From NCBI GenBank assembly GCA_963801725.1, contig CAWDFX010000002.1, positions 1,507,231 to 1,539,230 of the forward strand: a stretch of DNA of 32,000 nucleotides. Direction: 5' to 3'. The position numbers and the translations under genes are program-made. Shown one piece after another: positions 11,890 to 32,000 of this stretch. The notes beneath the pieces were generated by a model, which was not told the DNA's origin, ran no database searches, and saw only the letters and a program-made list of their open reading frames with translations. Each line of letters starts with the position of its first letter. Positions within the stretch are counted from its first letter, which is position 1. Source of the stretch: an uncultured Nitrospiraceae bacterium (GTDB lineage Bacteria > Nitrospirota > Nitrospiria > Nitrospirales > Nitrospiraceae).

Positions 11890-11962
11890 GAAAGGCGCTC
11901 CTTTTTTGAGAGGTATATGAGGGCTTCCTTCAAATGTACACTTCTATCATATTTCTGGTCGT

Positions 11963-12911: not shown

Positions 12912-13127
12912 GGTTGAACTCCTCTCTGAAATGGTTGAGCGAACCTCTCCAGCCAAATGTACAACTGGTCTTTTCTATGTGAGGGGTCTCACAGGCATTT
13001 CGTCTGTGTGTGAGGAAAAGAATAGCAGAGCCAAATTTTGCAATATGTATCGTAGTGTCCGGTTAAGAGTCAAGCACTTTGACCCAAAACCAGAAAAGTA
13101 GGCCAGCGGAATCTTGCCCACAGCCTA

Positions 13128-13575
13128 CGTGCGGTGTTGGGTCCGCACCGTCAGCCCTTCGTCCGTATACAGCCGATAAATCCGTTTGGCGTTCACCTGC
13201 CACCCTTCCCGTCTCAGCAACACCGTGAGTCGCCGATACCCGAAGCGTACTCGGCTCGCCGCCAACTCTCGCAACCGCATGCGCAACGCCTCCTGCGGAT
13301 CACGGCGACTCCGATACTGTAAGGAGGCTCGCGCCATCGGTAACAGCCTCGAGACCCGGCGCTCACTGACCTGATAGGTCGTTTGCGCCTAGCGTGCCAG
13401 CACACGCCAGTCCCGAGGCCGTACAGCTTTTTTCGCACGATCTCCTGCAGCATATGGCGATCGAGCGAGAGATCTGCCACCAAGCGTTTCAACTTGGCAT
13501 TCTCCTCACGGAGCTGCCGCAGTTCGCGCCGTTCACTGAGGCCCAGCCCCGCATACTTGCGTTTGGCTCCGGGAG
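13128..13575 (-). mobile_element. IS3-family insertion sequence remnant (OrfA C-terminus plus OrfB N-terminus only, no DDE domain)
   Basis: The minus strand reads ...GAKRKYAGLGLSERRELRQLREENAKLKRLVADLSLDRHMLQEIVRKK, followed by the canonical IS3 slippery heptamer A-AAA-AAG (13433..13427). The -1 frame then gives KAVRPRDWRVLAR*AQTTYQVSERRVSRLLPMARASLQYRSRRDPQEALRMRLRELAASRVRFGYRRLTVLLRREGWQVNAKRIYRLY... It contains an in-frame TAG (13391..13389) and is truncated at both ends. Confidence 0.8.
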
Positions 13576-14375
13576 GTAACGATAAGGGCTAGAAATCATT
13601 CGATGATGAAGAATTCTTCACGATCCGTTCACGATCTGCTCATCTGAGGCTGTTACATCGTAGGCAAACGACAGGCCCCCGAATTTTATCTCGGGAATAT
13701 TGAGCAACAGGGTCTGAACATCGACTTGAACAAGCTTTGATGAACACGGGTCTGTACAGCTGGTTCCATTTTGCCAGCAACCAGACGAATGCGGCGAGTA
13801 ACGTTGACATGATCGGGGCGCTGCGAAATTACAGAGCGTCTTATTCACGATTCCAACCCAACCATGCGTACATGTTATGAATGTCGTACGGACCGAGTCG
13901 TCTCCAGGGCTACACTCCCTCCTAGCCTCAAGAATTTCCATTGTGTTATAAAAAGCGGACACGACATATGTTGTCTGCAGGGGGCAAAGGCTGGCATTGA
14001 CAGATTTTTCTGGGGCCTGTATAAGGGCGCCGATCAGATAGGGGAACAACGGCGTTTCCCATCAGCCTCAAGTCATAAATTGATGCGTGGACAATGGCGT
14101 CCTCCAGCCCAAGCGGGCTAGAGGATTTTTTTTGCTCGCATTCGAATCGGCTGAATCACAATGGCGCAGGTGAACTGAGCGATGGGAAAATCTGAGAATA
14201 GCCAGACGTGGGCGATTGGACGGGGAGGGGATTCAGATTGTTATACTGGCGTTGGTTCGACGATGTTGTTGTGGCGAGAGGCTTGCAGGGGGATGCAAGT
14301 AGACAAGTAGGCTGATCTCCGTCTTTCGGTATGTATGATAGAGGCAACCTCGGGAATTGTTTAAGGAGGTGTGAC

Positions 14376-15233
14376 GTGAAGAAGCTGATTGGAAGTATTG
14401 TCGTATTGACAATGGCGACGATTCTGAGTTCTCTGGCTTGGGCACAAGACGGGAAACCACCGGCCCCGCAAGTCAAAACGCGATCTGTGGCGCCTCCTCA
14501 TGACGCCCCCCACTGGAGCTACGAAGGCAAGGATGGCCCTCGATTTTGGGGTAAGCTCGACCCGGATTTTTCGCTTTGTAAAGACGGCCATAAACAGTCG
14601 CCTATCGATATCGGGAAAACCACTCAAGCATCACTTCAGAAACTCGGAGCAGACTTCAGTCCCGCGAAGCTGCAGATCGCGCATCACGAGCATATCGCCG
14701 ACGAGATCAACAATGGCCACACCATCCAGGTCAACTATTCGGAAGGCGATACCCTTACCATTGGAGAAGACAGCTTCGAGCTTATCCAATTCCACTTCCA
14801 TAGTCCGAGCGAGCACACTGTCAAGGGCAAGCATTACCCGATGGAGATGCATTTCGTGCACAAGTCTGCCTCAGGTGCCCTGGCGGTCGTCGGCGTATTC
14901 ATCGAGAAAGGGGCACACAATGTGGCCTTCGACCCTATCTGGTCGAACCTTCCAACGAAAAAGGGAGTCGAGTCACATTTTGAACATGTCCAGGTGAATG
15001 TTGATGATCTTTTGCCGCACAATACTGAGAGCTACCGTTATGATGGTTCTCTGACAACTCCCCCTTGTTCGGAGGGGGTGAGGTGGATCGTGATGAAGTC
15101 TCCTATCCAGCTCTCTGGGGAGCAAATCGGGAAGTTCACGGCGCTCGTCAAGGGGAATAATCGGCCTGTGCAGCCCTTACATCACCGTGTGACTGTGACC
15201 GATGCGGTTACAGAAGAAGTGATGGCGAGATGA
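14376..15233 (+). CDS. Alpha-class carbonic anhydrase, exported
   Basis: HWSYEGKDGP, QSPIDI, NNGHTIQV, QFHFHSPSEH and MEMHFVH (the three Zn His), LTTPPCSEGVRWIV. The likely start is GTG 14376 (VKKLIGSIVVLTMATILSSLAWA signal peptide) with AAGGAGG 6 nt upstream. Confidence 0.9.
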   Translation: MKKLIGSIVVLTMATILSSLAWAQDGKPPAPQVKTRSVAPPHDAPHWSYEGKDGPRFWGKLDPDFSLCKDGHKQSPIDIGKTTQASLQKLGADFSPAKLQIAHHEHIADEINNGHTIQVNYSEGDTLTIGEDSFELIQFHFHSPSEHTVKGKHYPMEMHFVHKSASGALAVVGVFIEKGAHNVAFDPIWSNLPTKKGVESHFEHVQVNVDDLLPHNTESYRYDGSLTTPPCSEGVRWIVMKSPIQLSGEQIGKFTALVKGNNRPVQPLHHRVTVTDAVTEEVMAR

Positions 15234-15323
15234 CGGCCTGAATGGTGGCCACTGGACGAGGTAGATGGAATAATGTGTCAGCAATCGCGGTGTCCGTTCG
15301 GTAGGGACCAGTGTGATTTCCCA

Positions 15324-15362
15324 CTTGTTTGACATGTGTGCATAACACACATGTCAAACAAG
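15324..15362. repeat. Perfect 17-bp inverted repeat (hairpin) with a 5-nt loop in the non-coding spacer
   Basis: cttgtttgacatgtgtg (15324-15340), cataa, cacacatgtcaaacaag (15346-15362). There is no flanking T- or A-tract. It is bracketed by gtaggga (15301) and gtagggc (15363). Confidence 0.7.
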
Positions 15363-16182
15363 AGTAGGGCGATGAACTCAGAAATGCGCCGCCGGCCTCT
15401 CTGCCCTCAGCACAGCTCTATCGGCAAACAGGCTATAGAAGCCTGGTGTGTTGACGGGGCATGATCTTGCACCCCCCATTTGGAAGTGTGTTGGACGCTT
15501 GCCTAAGCGGGAGAATCCCGCATCGAGTGTTACACGCGAAGAGTGAGGACACGCTGTTTGGGGATGAGTTGAATCCAACTACGATCTTAGCAGGAGCGAT
15601 TCCAGGTTGTTTTCTATCAGATAGACTTGGCGATCCGGCGACATATCAAAGTAGGATCCTCGACTGTAATAAAGTGACAGGATGTCTACGAGCACATATC
15701 TTTCACCTATGAACTCAACCAAAGTACATTCGATTCTCGATTTTTCTGTCGTCCGATCTCTATTCGTGTCTGAACACGGTATGTTCCTCGACTAACGACT
15801 GATCTTGCCGGACAATCGCCCCGTGCCCGTCACTTGCTCCGGTTCCGCTAGTCTTCTTTGATTGCAAACACATTGATTCCTCCAAAACTTCGGCGGGTGG
15901 TCGCCGTTATGTCGGCGATCATGCGAAAATCCCCCTGTGGCCAACTGATACTGTCGGATCATGTGCTTGTGAAGTGGCTCTGGGGTAGCATAAACCCCAT
16001 AGATAGAAGCGGTGGAGAGTAAGTATTATGAGTAACTTCAGCGAAGGATAAAATATCGCTCAAATAGAACTAAACGAATAGTCCTGGCAGGAGTTGTTCA
16101 ATTCCGTGCGAACGGTAATCTCTTAGCCGTGGATTCTTAGTATTCGATCGATAGGTCCATTCTATCTATCTTCTCGTTCCAT

Positions 16183-16229
16183 AAAAAAAGCCGATCCGCC
16201 AACCCGTCTCACGACGGGGGCGGATCGGC
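16183..16229 (-). terminator. Rho-independent terminator of amoCAB
   Basis: On the minus strand, 25 nt after the amoB TAA: an 11-bp perfect stem gccgatccgcc/ggcggatcggc (16229..16219 with 16200..16190) enclosing an inner 6-bp stem cccgtc/gacggg, followed immediately by T7 (16189..16183). Confidence 0.85.
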
Positions 16230-16254
16230 ATCACGCTTGGACGTGCTTAAACCC

Positions 16255-17520
16255 TTAGCTTCCTACGGCCCTCGTAAAGACTGGGATGATGTTACCAGCT
16301 ATACTGTTGATATGACGATTTCCGGCTTCGTCCCAAGCCATCACGAGCCCTCCGAAGCGCTGGTCAGGATCGTGGACCAGATCCATCAACCTCTGCACTT
16401 CCCAGAGCGAATCACGTGAGTCGAGCTTGACTTCTCTGCTTTCGCCTGGGTTGATGGGAGACTCATCCTCTATATGCAAGCCGTCTAGGGCCATGATCTC
16501 CGGTGGATAGGTCGGGTCCATATTGTTCGCCACCCCCACCTTGTTAAGGAACCTGATTCCTGCCGTCGTGAATTCTCCGATCCTAAGAGGCTGCTCTCCG
16601 CTGTTGGTGACCTGTAGGGTCATGCGAAGGGCGCGACCAGGAACGTCGTAATCTGCGGTGAGAACCTTGATCGTGAGGTCTGACTTCAAATGAGTCGCCT
16701 TGATCTTTGGCTCACCCGCTTGGAGCGGGATAGTATAAGGGTACTGAGAATCTGTCACGAAGAAACCAATTGCGATTAAGACAAAGCACACCCCTAACAT
16801 ACCAAAGGCCACTACACGGTCGACCGGATCGTTTAGGAGCGCATCTCCTCCCTCTTGCGCCAGCACGCGGGCGCGAATGAGGAACATCGGTCTGATTGAG
16901 AACCAGGCAATCCAGAGAAACCCGAGACTACCCCATAGGGCATGCCAGAAGAGCCCGGCCGCCAGGCCTGCGGTCTCCGTATCGATGGTTCCACCAACCA
17001 GCAACTTCACCGGGTTGGTAAAGTCCTTATAGTTGCCTGTGATATCCATCCAGCCCCCAGGTCCGGCGATAGGGCCGGCCCCATTGACTGCCAACATCGG
17101 GTGGATGTGGTGATGTCCAGGTAACCGGCCTCTCAGCTTGATCACATACTCGTAGTCCCCACCGAGCTCCATTGGGCCAGAGGTGACCATCGGAATTCCG
17201 TTCACTTTCGAGCTGAGACGTGTAAACACCGAACTTGGGCTGCCTACGTTTATGAACGTACGCTTGGGCGCAACAACGGCCCTTGGCCAGTCTTCGGATA
17301 TGTGGATCTTGCCAGACAGCATCGCTTCATCGTTGACGGCGGTCTTCTGCGGATTCCATCTTGTGTCATACCATTGAGCGGTACGCATCCGCAGGAACGG
17401 TTCCTGAGACCGCTCCCCGTGGGCGGCGGCGGGAGAGGCAAAGAACACCAGGGGGAGCCCCAGTGTCGCCATCCCGAGGGAGCCGATCACGCACAATTTA
17501 ATTATGTTTTTGGCGTTCAT
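16255..17520 (-). CDS. amoB: Ammonia monooxygenase subunit B (CuMMO PmoB/AmoB family)
   Basis: The signal peptide ends ...SPAAA|HGERSQEPFLRMRT, so the mature N-terminus is His. Contains GHHHIHPM (HxH copper-site region), two internal TM helices and a C-terminal cupredoxin domain. The start overlaps the amoA stop (ATGA at 17520..17517). Confidence 0.95.
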   Translation of the reverse strand: MNAKNIIKLCVIGSLGMATLGLPLVFFASPAAAHGERSQEPFLRMRTAQWYDTRWNPQKTAVNDEAMLSGKIHISEDWPRAVVAPKRTFINVGSPSSVFTRLSSKVNGIPMVTSGPMELGGDYEYVIKLRGRLPGHHHIHPMLAVNGAGPIAGPGGWMDITGNYKDFTNPVKLLVGGTIDTETAGLAAGLFWHALWGSLGFLWIAWFSIRPMFLIRARVLAQEGGDALLNDPVDRVVAFGMLGVCFVLIAIGFFVTDSQYPYTIPLQAGEPKIKATHLKSDLTIKVLTADYDVPGRALRMTLQVTNSGEQPLRIGEFTTAGIRFLNKVGVANNMDPTYPPEIMALDGLHIEDESPINPGESREVKLDSRDSLWEVQRLMDLVHDPDQRFGGLVMAWDEAGNRHINSIAGNIIPVFTRAVGS

Positions 17521-18425
17521 GATTTCCCTTCTGCTAATGTGGCTCCGGCCCCCATAGGTGCTCCTGCCAATTTAGGCGCAATCCCGTCCGGCGTACCATG
17601 CCTTTGTGCAAACTCATCGCTGCCGACAACCATGATATCGTTCTTCCGTGACATTGCGCCGCGTTTGCCCTTGACCCAAAAGAACGATTGACCAACGAAG
17701 TGGCCGATTTGCCACCAAATGGTGAAGACCAACATAGAAACGAAGGCCGAGAAAAACGCCGAGATCCAGACGGTGTGTCCACCGAACGTACGCAGCGATC
17801 CCACCTCAATGATTCGGATATACTCAGGTGTCCCAGTACGGACATAAGTGAATCCCATGTAATCGGCCAGCGACATGAGCTGACCATCCACAACCAACGG
17901 TTGGTGGCTGTATCCGAATAGAGCGTATTGTGTTGGATTAAACATCATTGCGAATGCCCACACCCCGAATATCGCGGTGAGCATCCAGCTCCGAGTCAGC
18001 AACAGGGTGCAATCAAGGATCAGCGCGCTGCTGACCATGGTGGCGGGCATGACGAAGTTCATCGGAAAGTTGGCCCACCAGTACCAAGCAAATACAATCG
18101 TGATCCACTTCCCGACGAGGAGCCCCGTGATGCTCAATGTTGCACCAAACGGTTGCCGGTAGAACGTCCAGAAGTAGTACATGATCGCCCCAGGATACAT
18201 GACCTCGACAATTGGTGTCACCGTCACCCAAAACTGCCGGTCCTTCCAATCGACCCAGAAATCCCAGTCTCCTGCAAGCAGGTCGAAGTGCATATGAAAG
18301 GTTGCGAATACCCCTAAATATGCAATCGGAATGAAATACACCGCATCTATCATTCTTGACAGCTTGACGCCTTCCGGCGGAAGCTTGCTGGCTTTGATAA
18401 TTTCTGCGGTTCTAAACAGTGCCAT
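17517..18425 (-). CDS. amoA: Ammonia monooxygenase subunit A, divergent lineage, with an Ala/Gly/Pro-rich C-terminal extension
   Basis: MALFRTAEIIKASKLPPEGV..., LLAGDWDFWVDWKDRQFW, YVRTGTPEYIRIIEVGSLRTFGGHT, SAFFSAFVSML. The likely start is ATG 18425, preceded by GAGGAGGGG; the ORF-track GTG 18440 lies inside that RBS. Confidence 0.95.
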   Translation of the reverse strand: MALFRTAEIIKASKLPPEGVKLSRMIDAVYFIPIAYLGVFATFHMHFDLLAGDWDFWVDWKDRQFWVTVTPIVEVMYPGAIMYYFWTFYRQPFGATLSITGLLVGKWITIVFAWYWWANFPMNFVMPATMVSSALILDCTLLLTRSWMLTAIFGVWAFAMMFNPTQYALFGYSHQPLVVDGQLMSLADYMGFTYVRTGTPEYIRIIEVGSLRTFGGHTVWISAFFSAFVSMLVFTIWWQIGHFVGQSFFWVKGKRGAMSRKNDIMVVGSDEFAQRHGTPDGIAPKLAGAPMGAGATLAEGKS

Positions 18426-18488
18426 TTGTCCCCTCCTCACTCGTTCTGAACATCAGTCTCCTCCCCATAGTTCAACTAGCCTCCCGAC

Positions 18489-19289
18489 TTAGTACGGGAT
18501 CACATGCAAACAGTCCTTGCTCTCGTTGTTCCAGACCACATCACACAGGTTGGACATGCGCGCCACGATCTGCGCCGCCACGCCCCCCGTGCCGCCGAAC
18601 AACCCGCACCAGCCCAACGTCACAAAGCCCCAGTGCAACGGCGCGGCAAAGAGCTCATCGACGAACCAGAACGCATGCCCCCACTCATTGAGGCCCACGT
18701 TCGGCAGAATCATCATCGGCCCCACGATCGCTCCCACCAACGGGAACGAGACCGCCTTGCTGAACTGCGGCAGCCGGGTCATGGCATACAGGTAACTCGC
18801 GACGCCACAGGTGATGTACAACGGGAAGGTGAAGTAGAACGCGATAATATGGCTGGCGGTGAAGCTCGTATCGCGGATGATCACTTGATGCCACGACGCA
18901 TCCTGCTCCAGCGTATAACTGCCGGCCCAGTACACGCCGAACACATAAATCGCGAGCCACATCATCCAGTAAAAGTACCGCTTGAGTTCCGTCTTGGGAT
19001 CGACGTTGGCGATGTTCCGATCCCGCGTGCTCCAAATCCATCCCAGGGTCGCGGCCGAGAAGATGATGTTGGAAATCACGTTAAAGCGCCACAGGCCCAT
19101 CCAGACGTTTTCGAACTCCGGCGTCATCGAGTCCAACCCGTGGGAGTACCCAAAGACGCGCTGAAACACGACCTCGGCGCCCACCGCCGCCAACATTGCA
19201 AACCAGCCGATCTTGAGAGGCCTGGAATCGTACCAGAGCGACATGTCGTACCCCCGGTCGCTACCCCCCCATGTTGTTGAACTCGCCAT
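18489..19289 (-). CDS. amoC: Ammonia monooxygenase subunit C
   Basis: [57 protein letters not shown] (the conserved AmoC/PmoC metal-site region). ATG 19289 has GGAGG 7 nt upstream. Confidence 0.95.
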
Positions 19290-19396
19290 ACACGGACCTC
19301 CTTTTTATGTGATTGAGACCCACCGCGTATTCCAGAGAAAAATTCTCCGGGGAACCATCACTACTACTGGTTGCTGCCGTTTATCTGCGTGGCGGG

Positions 19397-19426
19397 AGAT
19401 TAGCGGATACGGTTTCTTGATGTCAA
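19397..19426 (-). promoter_or_regulatory. Candidate sigma70-type promoter for amoC
   Basis: The minus strand has a perfect -35 TTGACA (19426..19421), an 18-nt spacer and a weak -10 TAATCT (19402..19397), about 110 nt upstream of the amoC ATG. This is a pattern match only. Confidence 0.2.
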
Positions 19427-19460
19427 GTAGAATATCCAAGGTGGAAGCCTACATCCTGCT

Positions 19461-19476
19461 TGCAAAATGCGTGCAA
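19461..19476 (-). promoter_or_regulatory. Sigma54-like -24/-12 motif and TTGCA-N7-TGCAA palindrome abutting the IS end
   Basis: The minus strand reads TTGCACGcattTTGCA against the consensus TGGCACG-N4-TTGCA. All specified positions match except the first G of the GG dinucleotide. The same bases form an inverted repeat TTGCA..TGCAA. Confidence 0.15.
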
Positions 19477-19477
19477 A

Positions 19478-20490
19478 GGACTATGCACTTAACTCCAGTT
19501 TCGTCACCTAAATTAAGAGGTGCCCGCAACCAGTCTGGAGTAGGGGGCAGGCTCAATTGATACAGCTTGCGCGACAAGTCCGTAGAACAGTTTCCAACGG
19601 TATCTGGACGTTCGACGGTTGAATCTAAACGTGAATTCCTCGAGATAGGTATCCAGCTGCTCGCGGGACAGTGCACCTTGATGGGTACCCATCAACCAGC
19701 GTCTCAACAAGGAGGCGACCCGGTGTACGCGGGGTAGCAAGGCAGACGACTGTTTTGCCGTTGGCATTGATCAATCGCGGTCGGTGCTTGAAACCCTCCT
19801 GTTTCAACCCTGCATAGCCTTTCCATCCATCCGTGATGACTATGGAGCCTGGTTCAACCACGTGTTTTACGAAGGTGACGAGCTGACTCGGAGAGGCGGC
19901 GGGAATCCGACGCAGACGGATGCGCCCAATCCCTTTCCCATCAATCTGCGCGGCGATCGCCACCAGGGCCTTGCTCTCTAGGTGCCAGCGGCCTCCTCCC
20001 GCCTCGACGTTCCCCATATGCATTTCGTCCACTTCAACTTCGCCTCCCAGTCTGTCCCAATCCGGCAGTACCATTGCTCGCCGCAATTTTTGTAGCCACA
20101 ACCAGGCAGTTCTATAACTGCCAAAGCCCAGCAGGCGCTGTAGTCCTAAGGCGCTGAGCTGGTGTTTCTGTCCGGTCATCCACCACATGGCTCGGAACCA
20201 GTCCTGCAAAGGAAGGCGGGTTCGATGGAAGATCGTTCCCGCTGTGACCGAGGCTTGGTATCCGCATCGGCGGCACATCAAGAGGCATCGTGTGGTTGTC
20301 CAACTGCCGTTGGTCGTGCACTGTGGGCAACAGAACCCAGTCGGCCAACGCAACCGAGCTAGGTAGGCACGGCACGCACCTTCTGTGGCGAAGCGCTGCT
20401 CGAACTCGGCGAGGGTCCGCATTATATAGTCCTCCACGGTGTGACCCCGCTAGGCCTGGGGTATACTGGAGTCAAGTGCATAGTCCGTTG
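19478..20490 (-). mobile_element. IS1595-family insertion sequence, full length with terminal inverted repeats
   Basis: IR-L 19478-19499 ggactatgcacttaactccagt; IR-R 20465-20486 actggagtcaagtgcatagtcc, whose reverse complement is ggactatgcacttgactccagt (21/22). The heptamer gtgcaaa occurs at 19471-19477, directly abutting IR-L, and at 20492-20498, 5 nt beyond IR-R; this may be a target duplication. Confidence 0.85.
19513..20422 (-). pseudogene. IS1595-family (ISXO2-like DDE) transposase, frameshifted near 19745-19765
   Basis: N-terminal Zn-ribbon (CPQC...CRRCGY), then the DDE region (EVEVDEMHMG..., SIVITDGWKGY). The C-terminal part (LPRVHRVASLLRRWLMGTHQGALSREQLDTYLEEFTFRFNRR) lies in a different frame (ORF 19513..19767). 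The switch is around the A4 run in ggcaaaaca. ATG 20422 has GGAGG 8 nt upstream. Confidence 0.85.
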
Positions 20491-20880
20491 TGTGCAAAAA
20501 ATATACAAGAAGGTGTTGTAATGTCAAGCACGCAGGAACACCTAAGATTGCCACGCGGCATCTGTGCCAACAAAGGCTGACGATCGCCGAGCTTCCTGAT
20601 CCTGTGTCCCGTCAGGGGCTCACCCGCGCTCATGCAACTGTTTGGGGTTGTTTAGAATGAAGGTCCCGACTAGCCTGTGGGGTATTCGGGCAAAGAAAGT
20701 ATAGGGCGCAACGACCTTGCTACTACAGGGTTTTGAGGAGCAGAGTATTTCTAACTGTCATATTCGAATTGTCGAGAAACCATAGCCGCCATATCCTCTT
20801 CTCCTTAAAGTTCTCCTTAAAAAGTAATCAGTGAGACGTGCCCCGGTCTGCGCCAGACCCATTTTCTTCCATATGGGAAC

Positions 20881-23303: not shown

Positions 23304-23406
23304 TAGATACCCTCCTCATTCCTTACTGTTTCACTCGCTCGCAGCAGCCGGCCATTTGGCCGGCTTGTTTCGGCGCACTACTCTCCGGCGACGGATGACC
23401 GGCCGC

Positions 23407-23994: not shown

Positions 23995-24082
23995 CGTCAG
24001 TATCCTCATCGTTAGGCGTCTCAATTTCCTCGTTGAACCAGAGTCACACTGCGCCGGCGTGTTGGATCGGCTAGCCGGATGC

Positions 24083-24667
24083 CTATGAAACGGTACTGCC
24101 AGAAGTTTTGCCACGCCCGCGCAGAGCAAAGAAGAGCACCCCAATAACAGCGACCCCTGCGAATGCAATCAAGAAGTATGAGGGTGGCAACGGAATTTTC
24201 GTCTCCCCTACCGAGAATGGAAATCGTGATACATGTATTTGCTTGTCGCCTACGGTGACCAGGCCGACGAATTTACCGGGCTGGTCGAAATTGTATTCGA
24301 AATTGACCGTGCCGTTGGGATAGACCTTGGGCGGCAGGTGAAGGACTGTGATGGCCTGAAGGTCTTGCTCCGAGCCCGTATCCTTGATGACCCGAACCTC
24401 GGTGGGCAACGGGCGAAGAGCATCTTCCATGTAGTCGAGTACCACGACCGTGCGACCAGTTGCCGGAATATCCTCGCAGAATTCCTTGTTGCGCGTGTTG
24501 TCAGGCTGATAGCCGGTGAAGTGCATGTTGTACGGGCCGATCGTGAGTCGGCACATGTCCTCTGCCAGTGCCAGTCCTCCGTGAGCCTGGGCCTGTGTGG
24601 AGAATGTAACTCCGATCGCCAGCATCAAGAAGCACGCGCTAGCAGATTTCAGCAATTGCGCAGCCAT
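24083..24667 (-). CDS. AmoD/AmoE (PmoD)-like exported protein with a C-terminal TM anchor, paralog 2
   Basis: MAAQLLKSASACFLMLAIGVTFSTQAQA|HGG..., MCRLTIGPYNMHFTGYQP...EFCEDIPATGRTVVVLDY. About 60% identical by eye to paralog 1, with long near-identical DNA stretches. ATG 24667 is preceded by GAGGGAGGG. Confidence 0.65.
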   Translation of the reverse strand: MAAQLLKSASACFLMLAIGVTFSTQAQAHGGLALAEDMCRLTIGPYNMHFTGYQPDNTRNKEFCEDIPATGRTVVVLDYMEDALRPLPTEVRVIKDTGSEQDLQAITVLHLPPKVYPNGTVNFEYNFDQPGKFVGLVTVGDKQIHVSRFPFSVGETKIPLPPSYFLIAFAGVAVIGVLFFALRGRGKTSGSTVS

Positions 24668-24720
24668 TGTCAGGACCCTCCCTCTCGAATGTTGAACCAT
24701 GTGCTCACAGGCCGGAACAC

Positions 24721-25317
24721 CTAGTTTCCCGTCCGGCGGACTGCCCACCAATTCCGCACCCACTTCGATCGTACGAGCTTGTACACGAGCCACGCCGCGA
24801 GCAGCACGCCGAACAATGGGATGCCCACGGAGCGCAGCAGCTTCTGATAATCGGTCATGTGTACCCGCAAGAGATACTGCGGGCGCCGCATCAGATTCTG
24901 CTTCTCTGCCGCAATGGTGACCGTATACAGACCCTCGTCCAGCCGGACTTCTCCCCGGAGCACTCCGTCCGGGTGGGTGCTCGGACGAATATCGGCTACA
25001 ATCTGATCTTCTGCCTCATTGCCCCCGTTTCCCTTCACGACTCGCATCCCGACCGGCTCGTTGCGTAGCGACGGGTCCACGAGGTCTACGACGAGAAAGG
25101 TGTCGCCTTCTTTGGGAATGTCTGTGCAGTATTGATCTTTCAACTCGTATTGCGGCTGATAGGCGCTGAAGTGCACCACGCGTTCACCGACTCTGCGCAA
25201 ACACGGATCGTCTTCTCCACTGGTTGCCCCATGTGCGGCAGCTAGGCTGGGCAGGTATAGTGCAGCACCAAGAAGCACGAGCACGATTGCGCCTGTCCGT
25301 GTCACCTGTCTCTTCAT
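24721..25317 (-). CDS. AmoD/AmoE (PmoD)-like exported protein with a C-terminal TM anchor, paralog 3 (most divergent)
   Basis: MKRQVTRTGAIVLVLLGAALYLPSLAAA|HGA..., PCLRRVGERVVHFSAYQP...QYCTDIPKEGDTFLVVDL, with a C-terminal TM (IPLFGVLLAAWLVYKLV). AGGAGAG lies 8 nt upstream of ATG 25317. Confidence 0.6.
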   Translation of the reverse strand: MKRQVTRTGAIVLVLLGAALYLPSLAAAHGATSGEDDPCLRRVGERVVHFSAYQPQYELKDQYCTDIPKEGDTFLVVDLVDPSLRNEPVGMRVVKGNGGNEAEDQIVADIRPSTHPDGVLRGEVRLDEGLYTVTIAAEKQNLMRRPQYLLRVHMTDYQKLLRSVGIPLFGVLLAAWLVYKLVRSKWVRNWWAVRRTGN

Positions 25318-26248
25318 AGGTCGAACTCTCCTGTGTGGGACTCTGCGCGGAGGCGCAGCTCATTCCGCCCACCGTGACGGCGTTCCATGCGGCTCAGCGA
25401 TCCCAGTGCATAGTTGCGCGACTGGCCACATATCGTATCAAGTGGTATTACCATGATGCCATTAAAGCAGGGCAAGATTCTAGCCCCCCTCGCGAGGTAT
25501 GCAAAAACCTCGAAATTGTTTTTCTGTTGGGTTCGACCGGAGCACCGGCTGTCCGATTTGAACCATCTTCGATTGAAGGCATAAATAAGGGCAGGCACTG
25601 CGCACCTATTTCTCGAAGCTTTCCCGCGTGGATATCCGGAGCCAAGAACCGGGCATTGTTTTCCCATCCGTAAGGTTGGTAGGGGAATGCCGTGATAGAA
25701 AACAGTGGTGGAGTTTAGATGATACACAAACCACACGATTCCTCGATAATGGGTACATGTTACATGCATCTACGTACCAAGAGAAGGGCTGCTAGGGGCA
25801 CGCCTTTCCGCCGTTGCATTCGCGACCAACGGCTTTCCTCTTGCTTGTGTGGCAGGATTTGGTTGCTGGTGGGGGATCTGGTCTTGTTCCTCTTGGATGT
25901 GATGGCCCAGCGGAGAGTACAACGAATGAATTTCTGGTGCCGAGAGTTCGATCAGTGGGTTTGAGCAACAGGCTTGGAGGTACGGTCATATCGTACCCGC
26001 GCAATCCATCTTTGACTTGCCGATGTCTGATGGGCGACAATTGCAAATCCATTGTGCGTTCCCTTTTCATGAGGCCGCAAATTGCCGCATGGTGACGTCG
26101 ACTTTGCGGAGGGAATACCGATTCAGATACGGGTGTCTTGTATGAGACGCCAGACGGTATCGAGAAGGCGTTCGCGAACAGCAAGACCTTTAAAAGCTCA
26201 ACGCTGCGGCAATTCTTATTCTTCAGTTCCCGTGGGATTTCTCGAAAT

Positions 26249-26869
26249 ATGTTCCAAATCGTCGCACTGAGCGGCAGCCGGGGAGAGCGGTTGCTGTTTT
26301 CCGATATCAGCGTGACGGTCACGCCAGGAACTCTGTTGGCTGTGGTCGGTGAGAACGGCAGCGGGAAAACCAGCTTCCTTCGCATGCTGTGCGGGTTGTT
26401 GTCGCCTGATAACGGCACGATTCTTTGGCAGGGGAAAGACATTCGCCAGCTTAAGGAACTCTATCGTGCCCAGTTTACTTACGTGGGGCATCTCAACGGA
26501 ATCAAGGATGAGCTGACTCCAGTTGAAAACCTTACGGTCTCTGCCTGCCTGGCGGGCGATGAAAGTGCGAGTGGAGTTGTGCAGAAGGCGTTGGAGGCAG
26601 TCGGTCTTGGGCGACCGATCCATCGTCTGCCGACGCGCGTACTCTCGCAAGGACAAAAGCGCCGCGTGGCTCTGGCGCGTCTCTGGCTTTCCACTCGTCC
26701 GTTATGGCTCTTGGATGAACCATTTGCATCACTCGATGTTACAGCCACAAGTTACTTGACCCGGCACCTTCAGTCCCACCTGAGTCATGGTGGCATGGTG
26801 GTCGTCGCCACGCACCAGGAGATCGATCTTCCATCTGATTGCATTCAGCACCTGAGGCTGACTCGATGA
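26249..26869 (+). CDS. ccmA: Heme exporter ATP-binding protein CcmA
   Basis: Walker A GENGSGKT, ABC signature LSQGQKRR, Walker B LWLLDEP. The likely start is ATG 26249 (MFQIVALSG...). The stop overlaps the ccmB start (ATGA). Confidence 0.9.
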   Translation: MFQIVALSGSRGERLLFSDISVTVTPGTLLAVVGENGSGKTSFLRMLCGLLSPDNGTILWQGKDIRQLKELYRAQFTYVGHLNGIKDELTPVENLTVSACLAGDESASGVVQKALEAVGLGRPIHRLPTRVLSQGQKRRVALARLWLSTRPLWLLDEPFASLDVTATSYLTRHLQSHLSHGGMVVVATHQEIDLPSDCIQHLRLTR

Positions 26870-27549
26870 GTCAGCCCAGTCTGAGTGAGGCATTACACGG
26901 CGTTGTCCGACGGGACCTCCTGTTGGCTATGCGGCACCGCTCGGATGTGGCGATGTCGGTGTTCTTTGTCGTCATCGTCGCGAGCCTCTTTCCGTTGGGG
27001 GTTGGGCCGGAGCCGGCGGTTCTGAGGATGATCGCCTCCGGTGTGCTCTGGGTTACGGCCTTGCTTGCGTGTCTGTTGTCGTTGGGGCGCTTGTTCACTG
27101 CGGATTATCTTGATGGTGTGTTAGAACAGACGCTCTTGATCCCTCAACCGCTGGCTGTCTTGGTCGTTGGCAAGGTGTTCTCGCACTGGGTCATCTCTGG
27201 CTTGCCAGTGGTTCTGCTCTCGCCTCTCCTCGGCCTGCAATTCGGCTTGAGTGGAGAGTCGCTCTGGGTGTTGACGTTATCGCTCTTGCTTGGTACGCCG
27301 ACGTTGAGTATGATTGGAGCCATTGGAGCTGCATTAACTCTTGGATTGCGTGGGAGTGGCTTGCTGGTTGCCCTCCTGGTGCTTCCACTTTTTATTCCGG
27401 TGCTGATCTTTGGGGCCGGCGCCGTTACGAATAGTTTGGCCGGAATCGGAAGCGAAGCGAATCTGTCGCTGCTTGGAGCCTGCTTCCTGTTCTCGCTCAC
27501 ATTTGCGCCATGGGCCACGGCTGTTGCATTGCGCATTGCATTGGAATAA
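26866..27549 (+). CDS. ccmB: Heme exporter membrane protein CcmB
   Basis: Polytopic membrane protein of about 227 aa with typical CcmB sequence (FFVVIVASLFPLGVGPEP..., DYLDGVLEQTLL). Sits in the ccmA-B-C order. Confidence 0.9.
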   Translation: MSQPSLSEALHGVVRRDLLLAMRHRSDVAMSVFFVVIVASLFPLGVGPEPAVLRMIASGVLWVTALLACLLSLGRLFTADYLDGVLEQTLLIPQPLAVLVVGKVFSHWVISGLPVVLLSPLLGLQFGLSGESLWVLTLSLLLGTPTLSMIGAIGAALTLGLRGSGLLVALLVLPLFIPVLIFGAGAVTNSLAGIGSEANLSLLGACFLFSLTFAPWATAVALRIALE

Positions 27550-27558
27550 GACATCGTT

Positions 27559-28476
27559 ATGAGCGCCACAGGCATTAACTGGTTTAAATATTCATCACCA
27601 CAGGCCTTTCACCCGTTAGCCGGGCGGATGATTCCGTGGTTTGCTGCCGCTGCTGCGGGATTGATCGTGGTCGGGCTGTACGTGGGGTTTTTCGTCGCGC
27701 CGACCGATGCGACGCAAGGCGATGCCTACCGCATTATCTTTGTTCATGTACCGGCTGCCTGGATGTCCATGTTTCTCTACGTCATCATGGCGATCTGGGC
27801 AGGTCTTGGATTAGGGCTCAATGCGCGTCCTTCTTTTATGATGGCGCAGGCCATCGCTCCCACCGGAGCGATGTTTACGTTCCTCGCCCTGTTCACCGGA
27901 TCGATGTGGGGCAAACCGACCTGGGGGGCATGGTGGGTGTGGGATGCCCGGCTGACGTCGGAACTGATTTTGTTGTTTCAATACATCGGGATCATCTTGT
28001 TGCGCTCGTCGATCGACGACCTGCGTCGCGCCGATCGTGCCAGTGCCGTCTTGGCGCTCGTGGGGGTGGTCAATGTTCCAATCATCTATTTTTCTGTGAA
28101 GTGGTGGAACACGCTGCATCAAGGGGCTTCTGTCAGCATCACCGCGGCGCCGACAATGGCGGGCACCATGGTGACGGCGATGTTGGTGATGATGGTCGGC
28201 TTCTGGATGTACAGCATCGCGGTGACGCTAGCCCGCGTGCGCTGTGTGATTGTTGAGCGAGAGCGACAGCCGTCGTGGGGCAAGTCTGGCCTCGTTACCG
28301 GATGTCGCGGAGGCGCGCTGATGCAGTGGGGGAGTCTGGCGGAGTTTTTCGCGATGGGTGGGTACGGCCTCTATGTGTGGGCCTCGTTCGGCGCCACGGC
28401 TCTGTGCATGAGTGGGGAGGTCCTCGCGGTATGGCGGCGGTCTGCAGCAGCGGCTGAGAGCCACGATGAGTTGTAG
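27559..28476 (+). CDS. ccmC: Heme lyase/exporter subunit CcmC, with the CcmD sequence in-frame at its C-terminus as sequenced
   Basis: Trp-rich motif WGKPTWGAWWVWDARLTSE plus conserved His residues. The ORF is about 50 aa longer than a usual CcmC because the CcmD-like sequence follows with no stop. Confidence 0.9.
   Translation: MSATGINWFKYSSPQAFHPLAGRMIPWFAAAAAGLIVVGLYVGFFVAPTDATQGDAYRIIFVHVPAAWMSMFLYVIMAIWAGLGLGLNARPSFMMAQAIAPTGAMFTFLALFTGSMWGKPTWGAWWVWDARLTSELILLFQYIGIILLRSSIDDLRRADRASAVLALVGVVNVPIIYFSVKWWNTLHQGASVSITAAPTMAGTMVTAMLVMMVGFWMYSIAVTLARVRCVIVERERQPSWGKSGLVTGCRGGALMQWGSLAEFFAMGGYGLYVWASFGATALCMSGEVLAVWRRSAAAAESHDEL
28321..28476 (+). CDS. ccmD: CcmD (small heme-export membrane protein), probably a separate gene
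   Basis: MQWGSLAEFFAMGGYGLYVWASFGATALCMSGEVLAVWRR is a typical CcmD. In the neighbouring frame a TGA at 28319-28321 overlaps this ATG (cTGATGc), the usual ccmC/ccmD junction. A 1-nt slip at the G4 run 28277-28280 would restore it. Confidence 0.6.
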   Translation: MQWGSLAEFFAMGGYGLYVWASFGATALCMSGEVLAVWRRSAAAAESHDEL

Positions 28477-28491
28477 GAGGAAGCGAAGACG

Positions 28492-28959
28492 ATGAAGCCT
28501 CGACAGAAACGGTTTGTCCTTATCGGCCTAGGATTGGTCGCATTGGCGGTGGCGGCAGCGTTAGTGCTGAATGCATTTCAAAGCAACCTGGTGTTCTTTT
28601 ATACGCCGACGCAAGCCGCCAATGGGGATGTGCCCCAAGGGCGAAGCTTCCGTATCGGCGGAATGGTGGAAGCCGGCAGTCTCACGCGCGAAGGCGATGG
28701 GTTAACCGTACATTTTGTCGTGACCGATATGGCAAAGCGGGTGCCCGTGACGTTCAAAGGAATTCTACCGGACCTCTTCAAGGAGGGCAAAGGCGTTGTG
28801 GCTCAGGGGCAACTCGGAGCCAATGGAGCCTTTCTCGCGAGTGAAGTGCTGGCGAAGCACGATGAAAACTATATGCCACCGGAAGCCGCGGATGCGCTCG
28901 CCAAAGCCAAGACGGTAGGGGCGCAGAGCAGCGGCACCCTGGTCGTCAATCCACGCTAG
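28492..28959 (+). CDS. ccmE: Heme chaperone CcmE
   Basis: N-terminal membrane anchor, an OB-fold region ([11 protein letters not shown]...) and the heme-binding [12 protein letters not shown] motif. AGGAGG lies upstream. Confidence 0.95.
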
Positions 28960-28967
28960 GAGCCGAC

Positions 28968-30961
28968 ATGATTCCAGAAATTGGTCATTATGCCTTAATT
29001 CTCGCGCTCTGCGTGGCGGTCGTACAGGGGAGTCCTGCCTATCTATGGCGCGGCTGTGGGAAATTCCTCGCTGATGGCCGTTGCAAAGCCGGCGGCGCGC
29101 GCGCAATTCCTGCTGGTTCTACTGGCCTTTTGCTGCCTAGGGTATGCCTTTGCTGAGAAAGACTTCTCCGTGCTGTATGTTGCAGCCACGTCGAACTCTC
29201 AGCTCCCATTGCATTATCGTCTTGCCGCTATCTGGGGTGCGCACGAGGGTTCGTTACTGCTCTGGATGTTCATCCTCAGCATCTGGATGGTCGCCGTCTC
29301 TTTCTTCTCCACCCATCTGCCGGAGGCGATGCGCGCGCGCATTTTGGGTGTGATGGGTCTCGTCAGCGTGGGATTTCTTCTGTTCATGTTGACGGTCTCG
29401 AATCCGTTCGAGCGGTTGATTCCTGCCGCGCTTGATGGGCGCGATCTGAATCCGCTGTTGCAAGACCCCGGTATGGTGATCCACCCGCCGATGCTCTATA
29501 TGGGGTACGTGGGATTCTCCGTCGCGTTTTCCTTTGCGATCGCCGCGCTCTTGGGAGGCACGTTGGATGCGGCCTGGGCGCGTTGGTCACGTCCGTGGAC
29601 CACTGTTGCCTGGTGTTTTATGACCGTGGGGGTTGCGATGGGGAGCGGGTGGGCCTATTACGAGCTGGGTGGGGTGGTTGGTGGTTCTGGGACCCGGTCG
29701 AAAACGCCTCCTTCATGCCATGGCTGGCCGGCACCGCGTTGATGCACTCGCTGGCGGTGACCGATAAACGGGGCGGCTTCAAAGCCTGGAGCGTGTTGCT
29801 CGCCATTATGGCCTTCTCGCTCAGTCTGCTCGGAACCTTCTTAGTCCGTTCCGGCGTGTTGACTTCAGTGCATGCGTTTGCCACCGACCCGAAGCGTGGC
29901 TTATTCATTCTCGTGTTCCTGGCCGTGGTGATCGGCGGCTCGTTGGTCTTGTACGCCTGGCGGGCGCCTCGCGTCGGCCTGGGCGGGGGCTTTGCTATGA
30001 TCTCGCGCGAAGGGATGTTGCTGGCGAACAATGTGTTGTTGGTGGCGGCATTGGGCTCGGTGCTCCTGGGCACGCTGTATCCCTTGTTCTTGGACGCGCT
30101 GGATCTTGGAAAAATCTCGGTCGGCCCGCCGTACTTCGACACGGTCTTTCTCCCCCTGATGACCCCCGCAATCTTTTTGATGGGGATCGGGCCGCTGGCC
30201 CAATGGAAGCAGGCAAGCCTGCCGGCCTTGGCCATCCGCCTGCGCTGGGCATTCGGCGTCAGCCTGGTGACCGCCGTGGCGGTGCCGTGGCTCATGGGCC
30301 AATGGACGCCGCTGATCAGTCTGGGGCTCCTGCTGGCCTTCTGGATTCTGGCGACGATCGTGGTGGATCTGCGGGAGCGGCTGCTCCAGGCCGAAGGGGT
30401 GGCAGCATTGGGGGCCGCGTGGCCATGCTGCCTCGTGCCTATTGGGGCATGGTCTTGGCCCACTGCGGTGTGGCCCTATTCATTGTCGGTGTGACCATGG
30501 TGAAGGGCTTCGAAGTGGAGCAAGATGTACGGATGAACGTCGGTGAGACGGCCACGCTCGGCGGCTACACGTTCCGCTTTGACGGGACAGAACAGGTCAA
30601 TGGCCCGAACTATGTTGCGGCGCGGGGGACGTTTCATGTGAGCCAGGATGGCCGTGAGGTGACGGTGATGTATCCCGAAAAGCGCCGCTACTTCGTGCAG
30701 AACCAGACGATGACCGAAGCGGCAATTTCACCGGGGTTGCTGCGCGATCTGTACGTGTCGTTGGGCGAGCCGCTTGAGGGCGGAGCCTGGAGCGTGCGGC
30801 TCTATCACAAACCCTTCATCGATTGGATCTGGGGGGGCTGTTTGGTCATGGCTTCGGGCGGCGTCCTGGCCGTCAGCGATCGGCGCTATCGGCTGGCGTG
30901 GCGGCGGAAAGAGGCTGCGGTGCCGGCCACGACCCAGATGGCGCGCCCGACCGTCTCATGA
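28968..30961 (+). CDS. ccmF: Cytochrome c heme lyase CcmF, spread over three frame switches (four ORF pieces)
   Basis: Joining the pieces gives a colinear CcmF: MIPEIGHYALILALCVAVVQG | VLPIYGAAVGNSSLMAV...WGAHEGSLLLW...LNPLLQDPGMVIHPPMLYMGYVG...WAYYELG | WGGWWFWDPVENASFMPWL...SVHAF... | ...LPRAYWGMVLAHCGVA...YHKPFIDWIWGG. The switches are at G-runs: about 29027-29031, 29667-29669 and 30396-30414. Confidence 0.85.
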
Positions 30962-31572
30962 ACCGGTTTCTCATCCCGTTCGGGCTCTTCATTGTCGTGG
31001 TCGGTTTTCTGGCCGTCGGGCTCACGCTCAACCCGCGTGAATTGCCGTCTCCGTTGGTCGGGAAGGCGGCGCCTGAGTTTTCACTGCCGCAGCTCCATGA
31101 TCCAGGGAAAGTCATTTCGTCGAATGACCTGAAGGGCCAGGTCTGGTTGCTCAACTTCTGGGCGTCGTGGTGCGGGGGCTGTAAAGACGAGCATCCGGTG
31201 CTCGTCCATCTTGCACAATCAGGGGAGGTGCCCATCTATGGCATGGATTATAAGGATCAACGGAACGAGGCCCTGGGGTGGTTGAAGGAATGGGGCAATC
31301 CCTATCAGATCGTTGCCGTGGATGAGCCAGGGCGAGTCGGTATTAATTATGGTGTCTACGGTGTGCCGGAAACCTATGTGATCGATAAGCAGGGCGTCAT
31401 CCGCTACAAGCAAATCGGCCCGCTACGCGAGGATATCTTGGAAACAAAGATTTTTCCCCTGGTCAGGGAGCTTGCAGAACCAATGAGATGGCTCTGGGTG
31501 CTCATGCTGCTCTTTCCCAAGTCTTGCGACGGCGTACGAGGCCCCGCCGCTCGCTGCGAACCCGCAGGCTGA
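30958..31572 (+). CDS. ccmG: Thiol:disulfide oxidoreductase CcmG/DsbE (the ORF as sequenced reads through into the ccmH signal peptide)
   Basis: TM anchor MNRFLIPFGLFIVVVGFLAV, thioredoxin motif WASWCGGC, and GVYGVPETYVIDKQG. ATGA overlap with the ccmF stop. The CcmG-like sequence ends at ...LVRELAEP (about 31482). The remaining ~30 codons are the ccmH N-terminus plus off-frame sequence. Confidence 0.85.
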   Translation: MNRFLIPFGLFIVVVGFLAVGLTLNPRELPSPLVGKAAPEFSLPQLHDPGKVISSNDLKGQVWLLNFWASWCGGCKDEHPVLVHLAQSGEVPIYGMDYKDQRNEALGWLKEWGNPYQIVAVDEPGRVGINYGVYGVPETYVIDKQGVIRYKQIGPLREDILETKIFPLVRELAEPMRWLWVLMLLFPKSCDGVRGPAARCEPAG

Positions 31573-31871
31573 GGCGCGATTGAAAGCGCTCGCCGTCGAG
31601 CTGCGCTGCCTGGTCTGTCAGAATCAGACGTTGGCCGATTCGAACGCGCCGTTGGCCGAAGATTTGCGCCGAGAAGTGCGGGAGATGATCGCCAAAGATA
31701 TGAGCGACCGAGGAGATCATCGACTTTCTCGTCTCGCGATATGGGGACTTTGTGTTATACCGACCGCCCTGGAAGCTCACGACCACGTTGCTCTGGGTGG
31801 GGCCGTTCCTCTTGCTGGGAGCTGGCGCAACAGGATTGGTGTTTGCGCTGCGCGGAGACAGAAGAAGATGA
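31483..31871 (+). CDS. ccmH: Cytochrome c maturation protein CcmH, with two frame switches
   Basis: Signal peptide MRWLWVLMLLFP (frame 1). Then ATAYEAPPLAANPQAEARLKALAVELRCLVCQNQTLADSNAPLAEDLRREVREMIAKDMSD (frame 2, LRCxxCQ motif). Then EEIIDFLVSRYGDFVLYRPPWKLTTTLLWVGPFLLLGAGATGLVFALRGDRRR* (frame 3, stop 31869-31871). The switches are near 31513-31526 and 31708-31710. Confidence 0.8.
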
Positions 31872-31941
31872 CCGATGTGACGTTGTCGGAAGCCGAGCAC
31901 AATCGTGTGACGCAACTACTTTCCGAAGGAGCTCGTCGTCC

Positions 31942-32000
31942 TTGACCATCATATTCTGGTGTATCGTCATCGGGCATGACTCTTCTCATCCTCGGTCTTC
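31942..32000 (+). CDS. Possible start of ccmI (N-terminal TM helix), truncated by the window end
   Basis: TTG 31942 gives (M)TIIFWCIVIG, and ATG 31976 in another frame gives MTLLILGL. Joined at the GGG run 31972-31974, they form a typical CcmI N-terminal helix. Too short to be sure. Confidence 0.3.
   Translation, partial: MTIIFWCIVIGHDSSHPRS

Follow-up and report, generated by a model that had tools for sequence, protein, structure and literature searches.

The stretch of DNA analysed here (hereafter the window) comprises 32,000 nucleotides from an uncultured Nitrospiraceae bacterium (assembly GCA_963801725.1, contig CAWDFX010000002.1, positions 1,507,231 to 1,539,230) and has an overall GC-content of approximately 57%. 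From left to right the window carries nirK, a remnant of an IS3-family insertion sequence (IS), a gene for an alpha-carbonic anhydrase (alpha-CA), the ammonia monooxygenase (AMO) genes amoB, amoA and amoC, an IS1595-family element, copD and copC, amoD2, amoD1 and amoE and, in divergent orientation, ccmA to ccmH followed by the start of ccmI. Family membership was assigned by searching the open reading frames (ORFs) of the window against Pfam, NCBIfam and PDB. On the basis of gene content, gene order and comparison to related loci, the window very probably contains the ammonia-oxidation supercluster of clade-B comammox (complete ammonia-oxidising) Nitrospira: an old foreign cluster, since inherited within the clade and compositionally ameliorated. 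The cluster enables complete nitrification in a single Nitrospira cell and matters to the nitrogen cycle; descriptions of its gene content, layout and horizontal origin date from 2015–2018 onwards, and the finding is real but ordinary. An original prediction, made from the letters of the DNA, read the region from 13.1 kb to the window end as serving one process, with a periplasmic alpha-CA, amoCAB, copCD, three AmoD/E proteins and ccmA-H providing ammonia oxidation, copper handling and System I cytochrome c maturation; the family searches agree with both the gene list and this functional reading.

The three AMO genes are encoded on the minus strand. The product of amoB (16255-17520; PF04744, E=1e-144) matches the AMO structures 9LEG, 9PXF and 9CL6; amoA (17517-18425; PF02461, E=9e-92) encodes 302 amino acids (aa) in the relatives L172 and L186; amoC (18489-19289; PF04896, E=3e-105) is a multi-copy gene, within which, or right before which, the contigs of many relatives end. 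Judging from established family roles, AmoCAB would convert ammonia to hydroxylamine. The promoter region and 5' leader of amoC (19290-19467, minus strand) show a conservation of 0.77-0.91 across clade B, can be aligned to the intergenic regions of clade A, and have a proximal CTTGACA box in common with that clade. Directly after amoB, a GC-rich hairpin and the T-run behind it form the predicted intrinsic terminator of amoCAB (16178-16232, minus strand). Over about 54 nt the terminator shares 87-89% identity with contigs binned as Nitrosomonadaceae/Nitrosospira, is conserved to the same degree in clade A, and has changed less than the nearby coding sequence.

The copper-handling genes lie upstream of amoC on the same strand. 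The copD gene (20881-22902; PF05425, PF00034 and PF00578) encodes a 673-aa fusion protein in which CopD is joined to a cytochrome c domain and a thioredoxin-like (AhpC/TSA) domain; contigs of the type of betaproteobacterial ammonia-oxidising bacteria (beta-AOB; Nitrosomonadaceae/Nitrosospira bins) align to all 673 residues. Beyond it lie copC (22899-23303; PF04234, E=1e-21), two paralogues of the PmoD/AmoD family, amoD2 (23407-23994; 195 aa in L172 and L186) and amoD1 (24083-24667; match to PmoD structure 6CPD, E=5e-24), and amoE (24721-25317), a distant AmoD paralogue with 24-32% identity to amoD1 and amoD2 and with orthologues in all relatives. The two amoD genes form a tandem duplication (23537-24680) in which DNA identity is still 76-78%. 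Relative to locus L002, amoD1 has a synonymous divergence (dS) of 0.76 and a nonsynonymous divergence (dN) of 0.29, far above the values of neighboring genes. By their family roles, AmoE, AmoD1 and AmoD2, as PmoD-type periplasmic copper proteins, would supply or handle copper together with CopCD.

On the plus strand, the ccm operon begins with ccmA (26138-26869; PF00005) and ccmB (26866-27549; PF03379), and continues with a single ORF holding both ccmC and ccmD (27559-28476; PF01578 and PF04995), which L172 and L186 have as separate genes (253 and 51 aa). These are followed by ccmE (28492-28959; PF03100), ccmF (28968-30961; PF01578 and PF16327 across three ORF pieces, intact at 664 aa in L172 and L186), the thioredoxin-like ccmG (30958-31486; PF08534, 175 aa in L186) and ccmH (31483-31945; PF03918, partial in the window and full length, at 153 aa, in L088 and L186). 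Only some 60 bases of ccmI (31942-32000) fall inside the window end; ccmI follows ccmH in L086, L088 and L186. All members of the System I set from ccmA to ccmH are present in the window; ccmC/D, ccmF, ccmG and ccmH carry the frameshifts discussed below and are intact in OZ317818.1, the chromosome on which L186 lies. The expectation that hao and cycAB lie just past the window holds in relatives: all seven metagenomic relatives compared (seven of seven) show, beyond ccmG, the series ccmH, ccmI, another ccmI-like gene, haoA, haoB, cycA and cycB. Judged from L086 (94.8% identical), haoA is expected near window position 34.6 kb. The proteins CcmABCDEFGH(I) would, given their family roles, attach haem to the multihaem proteins encoded downstream, namely HaoA, c554 (CycA) and cM552 (CycB). 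At the opposite edge, the copper nitrite reductase gene nirK (11963-12956, minus strand; TIGR02376 on both of its ORF pieces, intact at 315 aa in L172 and L186) also belongs with the cluster, and the left boundary originally drawn at 13.1 kb was placed just too far to the right to include it. Its product would, on the same grounds, handle nitric oxide and nitrite.

A scan for CopD, limited to one genome per species, returned 80 loci. The top matches, among them CG24C, CG24E and palsa_1310, were metagenome-assembled genomes (MAGs) of Nitrospira and Nitrospiraceae with 76-94% identity. Further Nitrospira MAGs, which resemble clade A in their AmoA and AmoB identities, formed a second group, mostly at 61-66% identity with a maximum of 75% (L032), and contigs binned as Nitrosomonadaceae/Nitrosospira showed 59-65%. 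AmoA is 90-96% identical to its counterparts in clade-B loci versus 58-61% in clade A. CG24_C and CG24_E have been classed as comammox clade B (Palomo et al., bioRxiv 10.1101/138586); the CopD and AmoA identities, together with these bins, place the window with clade B rather than clade A. In clade-B loci long enough to show the full order (L001, L002, L004, L005, L006, L014, L034, L172 and L186), the arrangement ccmHGFEDCBA<>amoE-D1-D2-copC-copD-IS1595-amoCAB is unchanged, and L029 has the portion from amoE to amoB. The defining components of the supercluster are all found: amoCAB, with amoE, two amoD genes and copCD beside it, and ccm genes in the region, with haoAB-cycAB next to them in relatives.

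One MAG among the relatives, SMAG_U4501, holds two distinct copCD loci: L030, which is clade-B-like, and L043, whose CopD is 65% identical. At L043 there is also an amoD1-like gene with 84% identity, and an amoC with 92%. L043 could represent a second cluster or a mixture introduced by binning.

The content of the cluster, its foreign origin and the presence of transposases nearby have all been published (Palomo 2017, Poghosyan 2019). The clade-B region of the GWW3 and CG24 bins (10.1101/138586) and of Rifle RCB (PMC6852473) has the same genes in the same order, namely amoBAC, copDC, amoD2-D1-E, ccmA-I (ccmI in two copies), haoAB and cycAB, and likewise has an adjacent nirK, a transposase upstream of amoCAB and extra copies of amoC; for clade B as such, it has been noted that ccmI is duplicated and that a nirK stands next to the HAO cluster (Palomo et al., bioRxiv 10.1101/138586). 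The present lineage differs in having an alpha-CA past the amoB terminator, and the window sequence in its assembly frameshifts. Compared to the beta-AOB operon of Nitrosomonas and Nitrosospira, the families are the same (51-65% identity, with a full-length CopD match), the amoB terminator is kept, and AmoD/E and CopCD genes stand beside AMO. In beta-AOB, however, amoCAB is followed on the same strand by ED-copCD with a single amoD, and ccm and hao are elsewhere in the genome (10.1101/138586), whereas the window has its cop genes and a duplicated amoD upstream of amoC, and ccm/hao next to the cluster. The clade-A cluster (Ca. N. nitrosa / nitrificans type; L032 and L045) shares the unit amoE-D1-D2-copC-copD-amoCAB, but is without IS1595 between copD and amoC, has AMO proteins 57-61% identical to those of the window, and has no ccm genes within 7.5 kb upstream of amoE.

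Against three contigs binned as Nitrosomonadaceae/Nitrosospira (L036, L037 and L049), in which the gene order is that of beta-AOB (amoA-amoB-amoE-amoD-copC-copD), identities of the window proteins are 57-58% for AmoA, 55-57% for AmoB, 51-56% for AmoE, 60-62% for AmoD, 61-65% for CopC and 59-63% for CopD. Against clade-A Nitrospira, members of the same genus, the corresponding values are 58-61% for AmoA, 57-59% for AmoB and 64-75% for CopD. Taken over AmoA, AmoB, AmoE, AmoD and CopD, similarity to the Nitrosomonadaceae/Nitrosospira bins (51-63%) is about equal to that to clade A (50-75%). Because similarity to contigs of beta-AOB type approximates that to the same genus, a horizontal origin related to betaproteobacterial ammonia oxidisers is supported. 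The same discordance served Palomo et al. in their analysis. Published work points in the same direction: comammox copCD and System I genes are closest to those of betaproteobacterial oxidisers while canonical Nitrospira use System II, and reconciliation favours horizontal transfer for most of these genes (10.1101/138586).

The original prediction went further, attributing the acquisition to a block with the hallmarks of a genomic island. A rival explanation along these lines would be that a 19-kb block, bounded and moved by IS elements, arrived recently, and that its low-GC spacers are leftovers of donor composition. Two IS-derived sequences do lie within or at the edge of the block, but they are of different families, and the block is not enclosed between them. 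Bulk GC differs slightly between the left and right sides of the window (57.3% and 56.2%), a gap that arises because of non-coding DNA. Comparison of 13-32 kb to 1-13 kb, as proposed with the original prediction, showed the two sides to match: coding GC is 0.571 against 0.575 (Mann-Whitney p=0.90) and GC at third codon positions (GC3) is 0.633 against 0.687 (p=0.22); for synonymous codon usage, random partitions of the genes differ as much as the two sides do (p=0.22), and tetranucleotide profiles of 2-kb chunks differ only marginally (p=0.07). The chunk at 14-16 kb is the sole compositional outlier of the window (GC 0.518, tetranucleotide r=0.54). A tRNA scan of the window returned none, no integrase domain was found among the window ORFs scanned, and the window has no long flanking direct repeats, its sole long direct repeat being the amoD1/amoD2 tandem duplication.

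The spacers at 15234-16182, 20491-20880 and 25318-26248 are, as had been noticed, long and of lower GC (0.49, 0.49 and 0.52 versus 0.575 in coding sequence). Lower GC is normal for intergenic DNA and carries no signal by itself. Alignment with six relatives showed that the spacers are conserved only in blocks by gene starts, namely the amoC leader (19290-19467), 20440-20560, 25400-25520 upstream of amoE and 26000-26137 upstream of ccmA; their middles are conserved at 0.25-0.45 and are merely unconstrained. The divergent amoE/ccmA intergenic region (25318-26137) follows this pattern, with conservation only near the two gene starts, and has no match in Rfam; an Rfam scan of the whole window gave zero matches. 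No ORF above 83 aa, and none that is conserved, was found within the spacers. The spacers are thus long regulatory and filler intergenic DNA, and not relics of a donor; their length and GC stand as described, but not as signals of acquisition.

Patchy presence among close relatives, a further mark of islands, is not what we see: every clade-B locus examined has the block, with its genes in one and the same order. Together with its same-site IS1595 it occurs in the clade-B relatives examined at dS of up to ~1, and the IS3 scar is also found in L029 and L034. The left junction does vary, with L002, L005 and L014 carrying other genes beyond amoB, and a divergent tetranucleotide signature has been published for amoCAB of Ca. 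N. inopinata (10.1101/138586; PMC6852473). Weighed against a coding composition and codon usage equal to those of the flank, a clade-wide arrangement and a window free of tRNA, integrase or flanking repeat, these observations leave a recent island exceedingly improbable. Accordingly, of the original claim of horizontal acquisition, the foreign origin stands and the evidence for a recent block, drawn from island hallmarks, does not. It had been stated that the claim would fail if composition were indistinguishable from the core region and the locus were shared by descent among relatives, with no mobile-element scars; composition and shared locus turned out that way, but mobile-element scars are present, and these are ancient and clade-wide. 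The cluster is compositionally invisible here, which means that island finders based on composition will miss it.

Several points weigh against the reading of the window as an old, ameliorated foreign cluster. The Nitrosomonadaceae/Nitrosospira labels of L036, L037 and L049 are bin assignments; the affinity of the Ccm proteins to those of betaproteobacterial oxidisers is taken from the literature; the composition baseline is ~13 kb of flank, from which a weak deviation could escape, and the tetranucleotide result is borderline. Moreover, the relatives compared are amo-bearing loci, and absence from canonical Nitrospira comes from the literature only (10.1101/138586).

Synonymous divergence along the locus proves to be a mosaic. 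Relative to L002, dS is 0.086 for amoA, 0.57 for ccmA and 0.76 for amoD1; relative to L029 it is 0.06-0.10 for orf10786, the globin gene and nirK, 0.575 for the transketolase gene, and 0.54-1.03 for the amo, transposase and cop genes (amoA 1.03). This mosaic suggests that the cluster has been inherited within clade B yet shuffled by homologous exchange. The order of events is very probably acquisition before the diversification of clade B, followed by inheritance within the clade with frequent homologous recombination, with composition by now fully ameliorated. At 10700-13564 (orf10786, globin, nirK and the IS3 remnant) the window and L029 share 94-96% nucleotide identity, and both sides are far more diverged; this segment looks like a recently exchanged cassette.

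The IS1595-family element upstream of amoC (19468-20492, minus strand; PF12760 and PF12762) measures approximately 1,025 bp. Its transposase gene, which fills the element (19513-20422, minus strand), encodes Zn-ribbon and DDE_Tnp_IS1595 domains and bears a private additional base at 19747. Terminal inverted repeats of 26 nt (19474-19499 and 20465-20490) are 92% complementary, and the element is flanked by a 7-nt exact direct repeat, TGCAAAA, which is degraded in more distant relatives. Given the inverted repeats and the TGCAAAA flanks, the element is structurally complete. The window was originally held to contain one degraded and one complete IS, and this description is borne out, the IS3 remnant being truncated on both sides. 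In its two transposase domains, length of ~1 kb, terminal inverted repeats and 7-8 bp flanking direct repeat the element resembles other members of the IS1595 family; it differs in behaving as an orthologous element at a single site under clade-wide purifying selection, and not as a multi-copy IS that turns over.

Evidence for this difference comes from its distribution. IS1595 occupies the same site in L001, L002, L005, L006, L008, L013, L014, L020, L025, L029, L030, L033, L034, L172 and L186; it is there in all clade-B loci examined that span the copD-amoC junction, and in 13 genomes the transposase at this site is intact at 302 aa. The inverted-repeat core is conserved among relatives, and the flanks of the insertion are common across genomes. 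In a further 18 of 18 metagenome and MAG contexts the element stands beside copD and/or amoC; among these contexts and the clade-B loci (the loci, as opposed to whole genomes, were inspected) there were no copies at unrelated sites. A search of a representative library placed the transposase in a large family; its nearest representatives from outside share 57-65% identity with it. The median pairwise dN/dS of the transposase is 0.11 at dS ~1.07, compared to 0.16 for copD: the transposase is under purifying selection across clade B.

Such a pattern raises the possibility that the element is no longer selfish and has become a part of the amoC upstream region that the host retains, for instance as a regulator acting at its own inverted repeats or as a facilitator of amoC copy number. 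The fixed orthologous site, the lower dN/dS than that of copD and the constant company of copD or amoC all accord with domestication, as does the conservation of the inverted-repeat regions (0.76-0.84, versus 0.3-0.45 in the adjacent spacer). In addition, the element sits right downstream of a predicted sigma70-like promoter, TTGACA-16-TATATT (20500-20527, minus strand), which matches 11 of 12 consensus positions and abuts the outer end of the IS; the block spanning this predicted promoter and the IS end (20440-20560) is conserved across clade B. On the other hand, the D, D, E(7)R catalytic motif, apparently intact by inspection, and the intact inverted repeats are equally those of a functional IS, and amoC keeps its own proximal promoter, common to clade A, which is without the IS.

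The multiple copies of amoC bear on the same question. Identical transposase proteins precede amoCAB as well as singleton copies of amoC; element and gene have been duplicated together, an observation that accords with domestication. In the metagenome contigs L164-L171 a stretch holding the transposase and amoC is 99.97% identical over 3.27 kb and then runs into either amoA-amoB or unrelated genes; the entry of this one stretch into two contexts points to duplication of amoC along with its upstream region, and such duplication would account for the frequent breaking of MAG contigs at amoC. We considered the possibility that the IS itself mediated the duplication, as a unit of IS plus amoC bounded by the IS, and rejected it: on the upstream side, identity continues for at least 1.3 kb past the IS, and at the other end it stops with the amoC stop codon. 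Because the duplicated unit runs at least 1.3 kb beyond the element, IS1595 is best regarded as a passenger of the amoC duplication, which speaks against domestication. On balance we consider domestication unlikely. The preferred account is that IS1595 was inserted once, between a distal promoter and the proximal promoter of amoC, and has been retained there since.

Transposases in this position have been remarked upon before: one beside amoCAB in a clade-B genome was tied to lateral transfer (Poghosyan et al. 2019, PMC6852473), and transposases upstream of AMO operons were noted again in a 2026 paper (PMC12903955). The accounts of clade B cited here name the transposase only in passing, and not as a conserved orthologous element; an IS1595 selectively maintained upstream of amoC across the clade is possibly a small, new detail. 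In practical terms the conserved element offers a cheap marker for clade-B amoC loci.

The second IS-derived sequence marks the left side of the cluster. The IS3-family remnant (13116-13564, minus strand; NF033516) consists of the end of orfA and the start of orfB; the fragment at 13125-13337 covers residues 117-186 of the 369-position transposase model NF033516, and HTH_21 was called on the remnant in L172 and L186. It is present but inverted in L029, where it is 96% identical, and in L034. Between the remnant and the amoB terminator lies a variable, lineage-specific segment (13565-16147) that is not in L002, L029 or L034 and is found in L172, L186 and L081/82. It contains the alpha-CA gene (14376-15233, plus strand; PF00194, E=3e-47; 285 aa), with a Sec-type signal peptide recognised by inspection. 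The ORF itself extends from 14331 to 15233; its true start is probably at 14376, homologues being 285 aa long.

Homologues of the alpha-CA that are ~80% identical occur in an unrelated context (L083). In L081 an extra transposase of IS256 type (4266-5543) lies between alpha-CA and amoB; the spacer at 15262-16147 is matched by the closest relatives only (L172 and L186), and L081 has the IS256-type transposase in place of a counterpart. Beyond amoB, as noted above, L002, L005 and L014 carry other genes. Since the segment is absent from L002, L029 and L034, the homologue occurs elsewhere in an unrelated context and the amoB junction is variable, we infer that alpha-CA is a late, lineage-specific neighbor outside the core of the module. 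Its original inclusion as a member was mistaken in this respect: it is a later addition confined to the sub-lineage of L172, L186 and L081/82. The junction beyond amoB appears to be an insertion hot spot; the IS3 remnant very probably marks this rearrangement-prone site past the amoB terminator, where the alpha-CA segment was added in the present lineage.

Two minor features of this segment deserve mention. At 15324-15362, about 90 nt downstream of the stop codon of the alpha-CA gene, lies an inverted repeat whose two 17-nt arms (CTTGTTTGACATGTGTG / CACACATGTCAAACAAG) match perfectly around a 5-nt loop. A potential gene of 143 aa, orf13618, was treated as spurious: it has no family match, and no comparable gene was called in relatives.

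The window contains eleven private coding indels, each of exactly 1 bp. They fall in nirK (~12560, +1), the transposase gene (19747, +1), the ccmC/ccmD junction (28288, +1, which fuses the two genes into one ORF), ccmF (29031, +1; 29666, -1; 30398, -1), ccmG (31474, +1, with a shifted C-terminus), ccmH (~31520, 31712 and 31853) and the start of ccmI (31969, +1). Taken at face value, they would mean ongoing loss of System I cytochrome c maturation, nirK and the transposase in this strain, and a decaying module. Nine of the eleven lie within 28.3-32 kb, in the ccmC/D-F-G-H region, a clustering that is non-random (binomial p=2e-5), and the System II of canonical Nitrospira (10.1101/138586) could in principle compensate for the loss. 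That the indel cluster in ccmC-H records real, very recent decay in this strain is conceivable in principle, and would count against our overall interpretation.

Comparison to OZ317818.1 is informative. Exact copies of several proteins of the window occur on contigs of 2.87 and 3.28 Mb, the larger being this chromosome; the source of the window is itself a contig of ~2.9 Mb. From 10880 to ~27700 the window and OZ317818.1 differ by 17 substitutions only (~99.9% identity over 17 kb), and OZ317818.1 has none of the frameshifting indels of the window and its genes are intact. A ratio of five indels to 17 substitutions in the near-identical stretch is far above evolutionary expectation. The only stretch that diverges is 27750-32000, with 189 mismatches and 95.5% identity, and the indel cluster coincides with it; such a drop is typical of a long-read consensus from mixed strains. 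When reading frames are corrected, dN/dS relative to L086 is 0.065 for ccmF, 0.17 for ccmG and 0.04 for ccmH, in the same range as the intact ccmA, ccmB, ccmC and ccmE, and not above it. Every event is a single base, with insertions and deletions mixed and no larger deletions. An exact-sequence look-up in the contig index gave no match for the CcmG and CcmE of the window, and did match CopD.

These data make decay very improbable. Because OZ317818.1 lacks all of the frameshifts, the events cluster in the diverged stretch, and frame-corrected dN/dS is normal, the frameshifts are almost certainly, on the strength of these comparisons, assembly errors and not biology; the simplest reading is that they stem from consensus errors in a long-read assembly of mixed strains. 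The apparent pseudogenes (nirK, ccmF, ccmG, ccmH and the transposase gene) are artefacts, and should not be taken as loss of function. Indels in the transketolase gene were also considered as errors of the window, and were traced instead to L029 (MFD01561.bin.2.25), whose transketolase gene has compensating frameshifts of its own; indel errors are not unique to the assembly of the window.

The left part of the window holds housekeeping and regulatory genes, which encode a DpnII-type nuclease, AsnC, an NtrC/histidine-kinase pair, MalQ, transketolase and a truncated globin. Near its outer end, a 362-aa ORF without a family match (530-1618) is overlapped by the DpnII/MboI-type restriction endonuclease domain (1308-1964).

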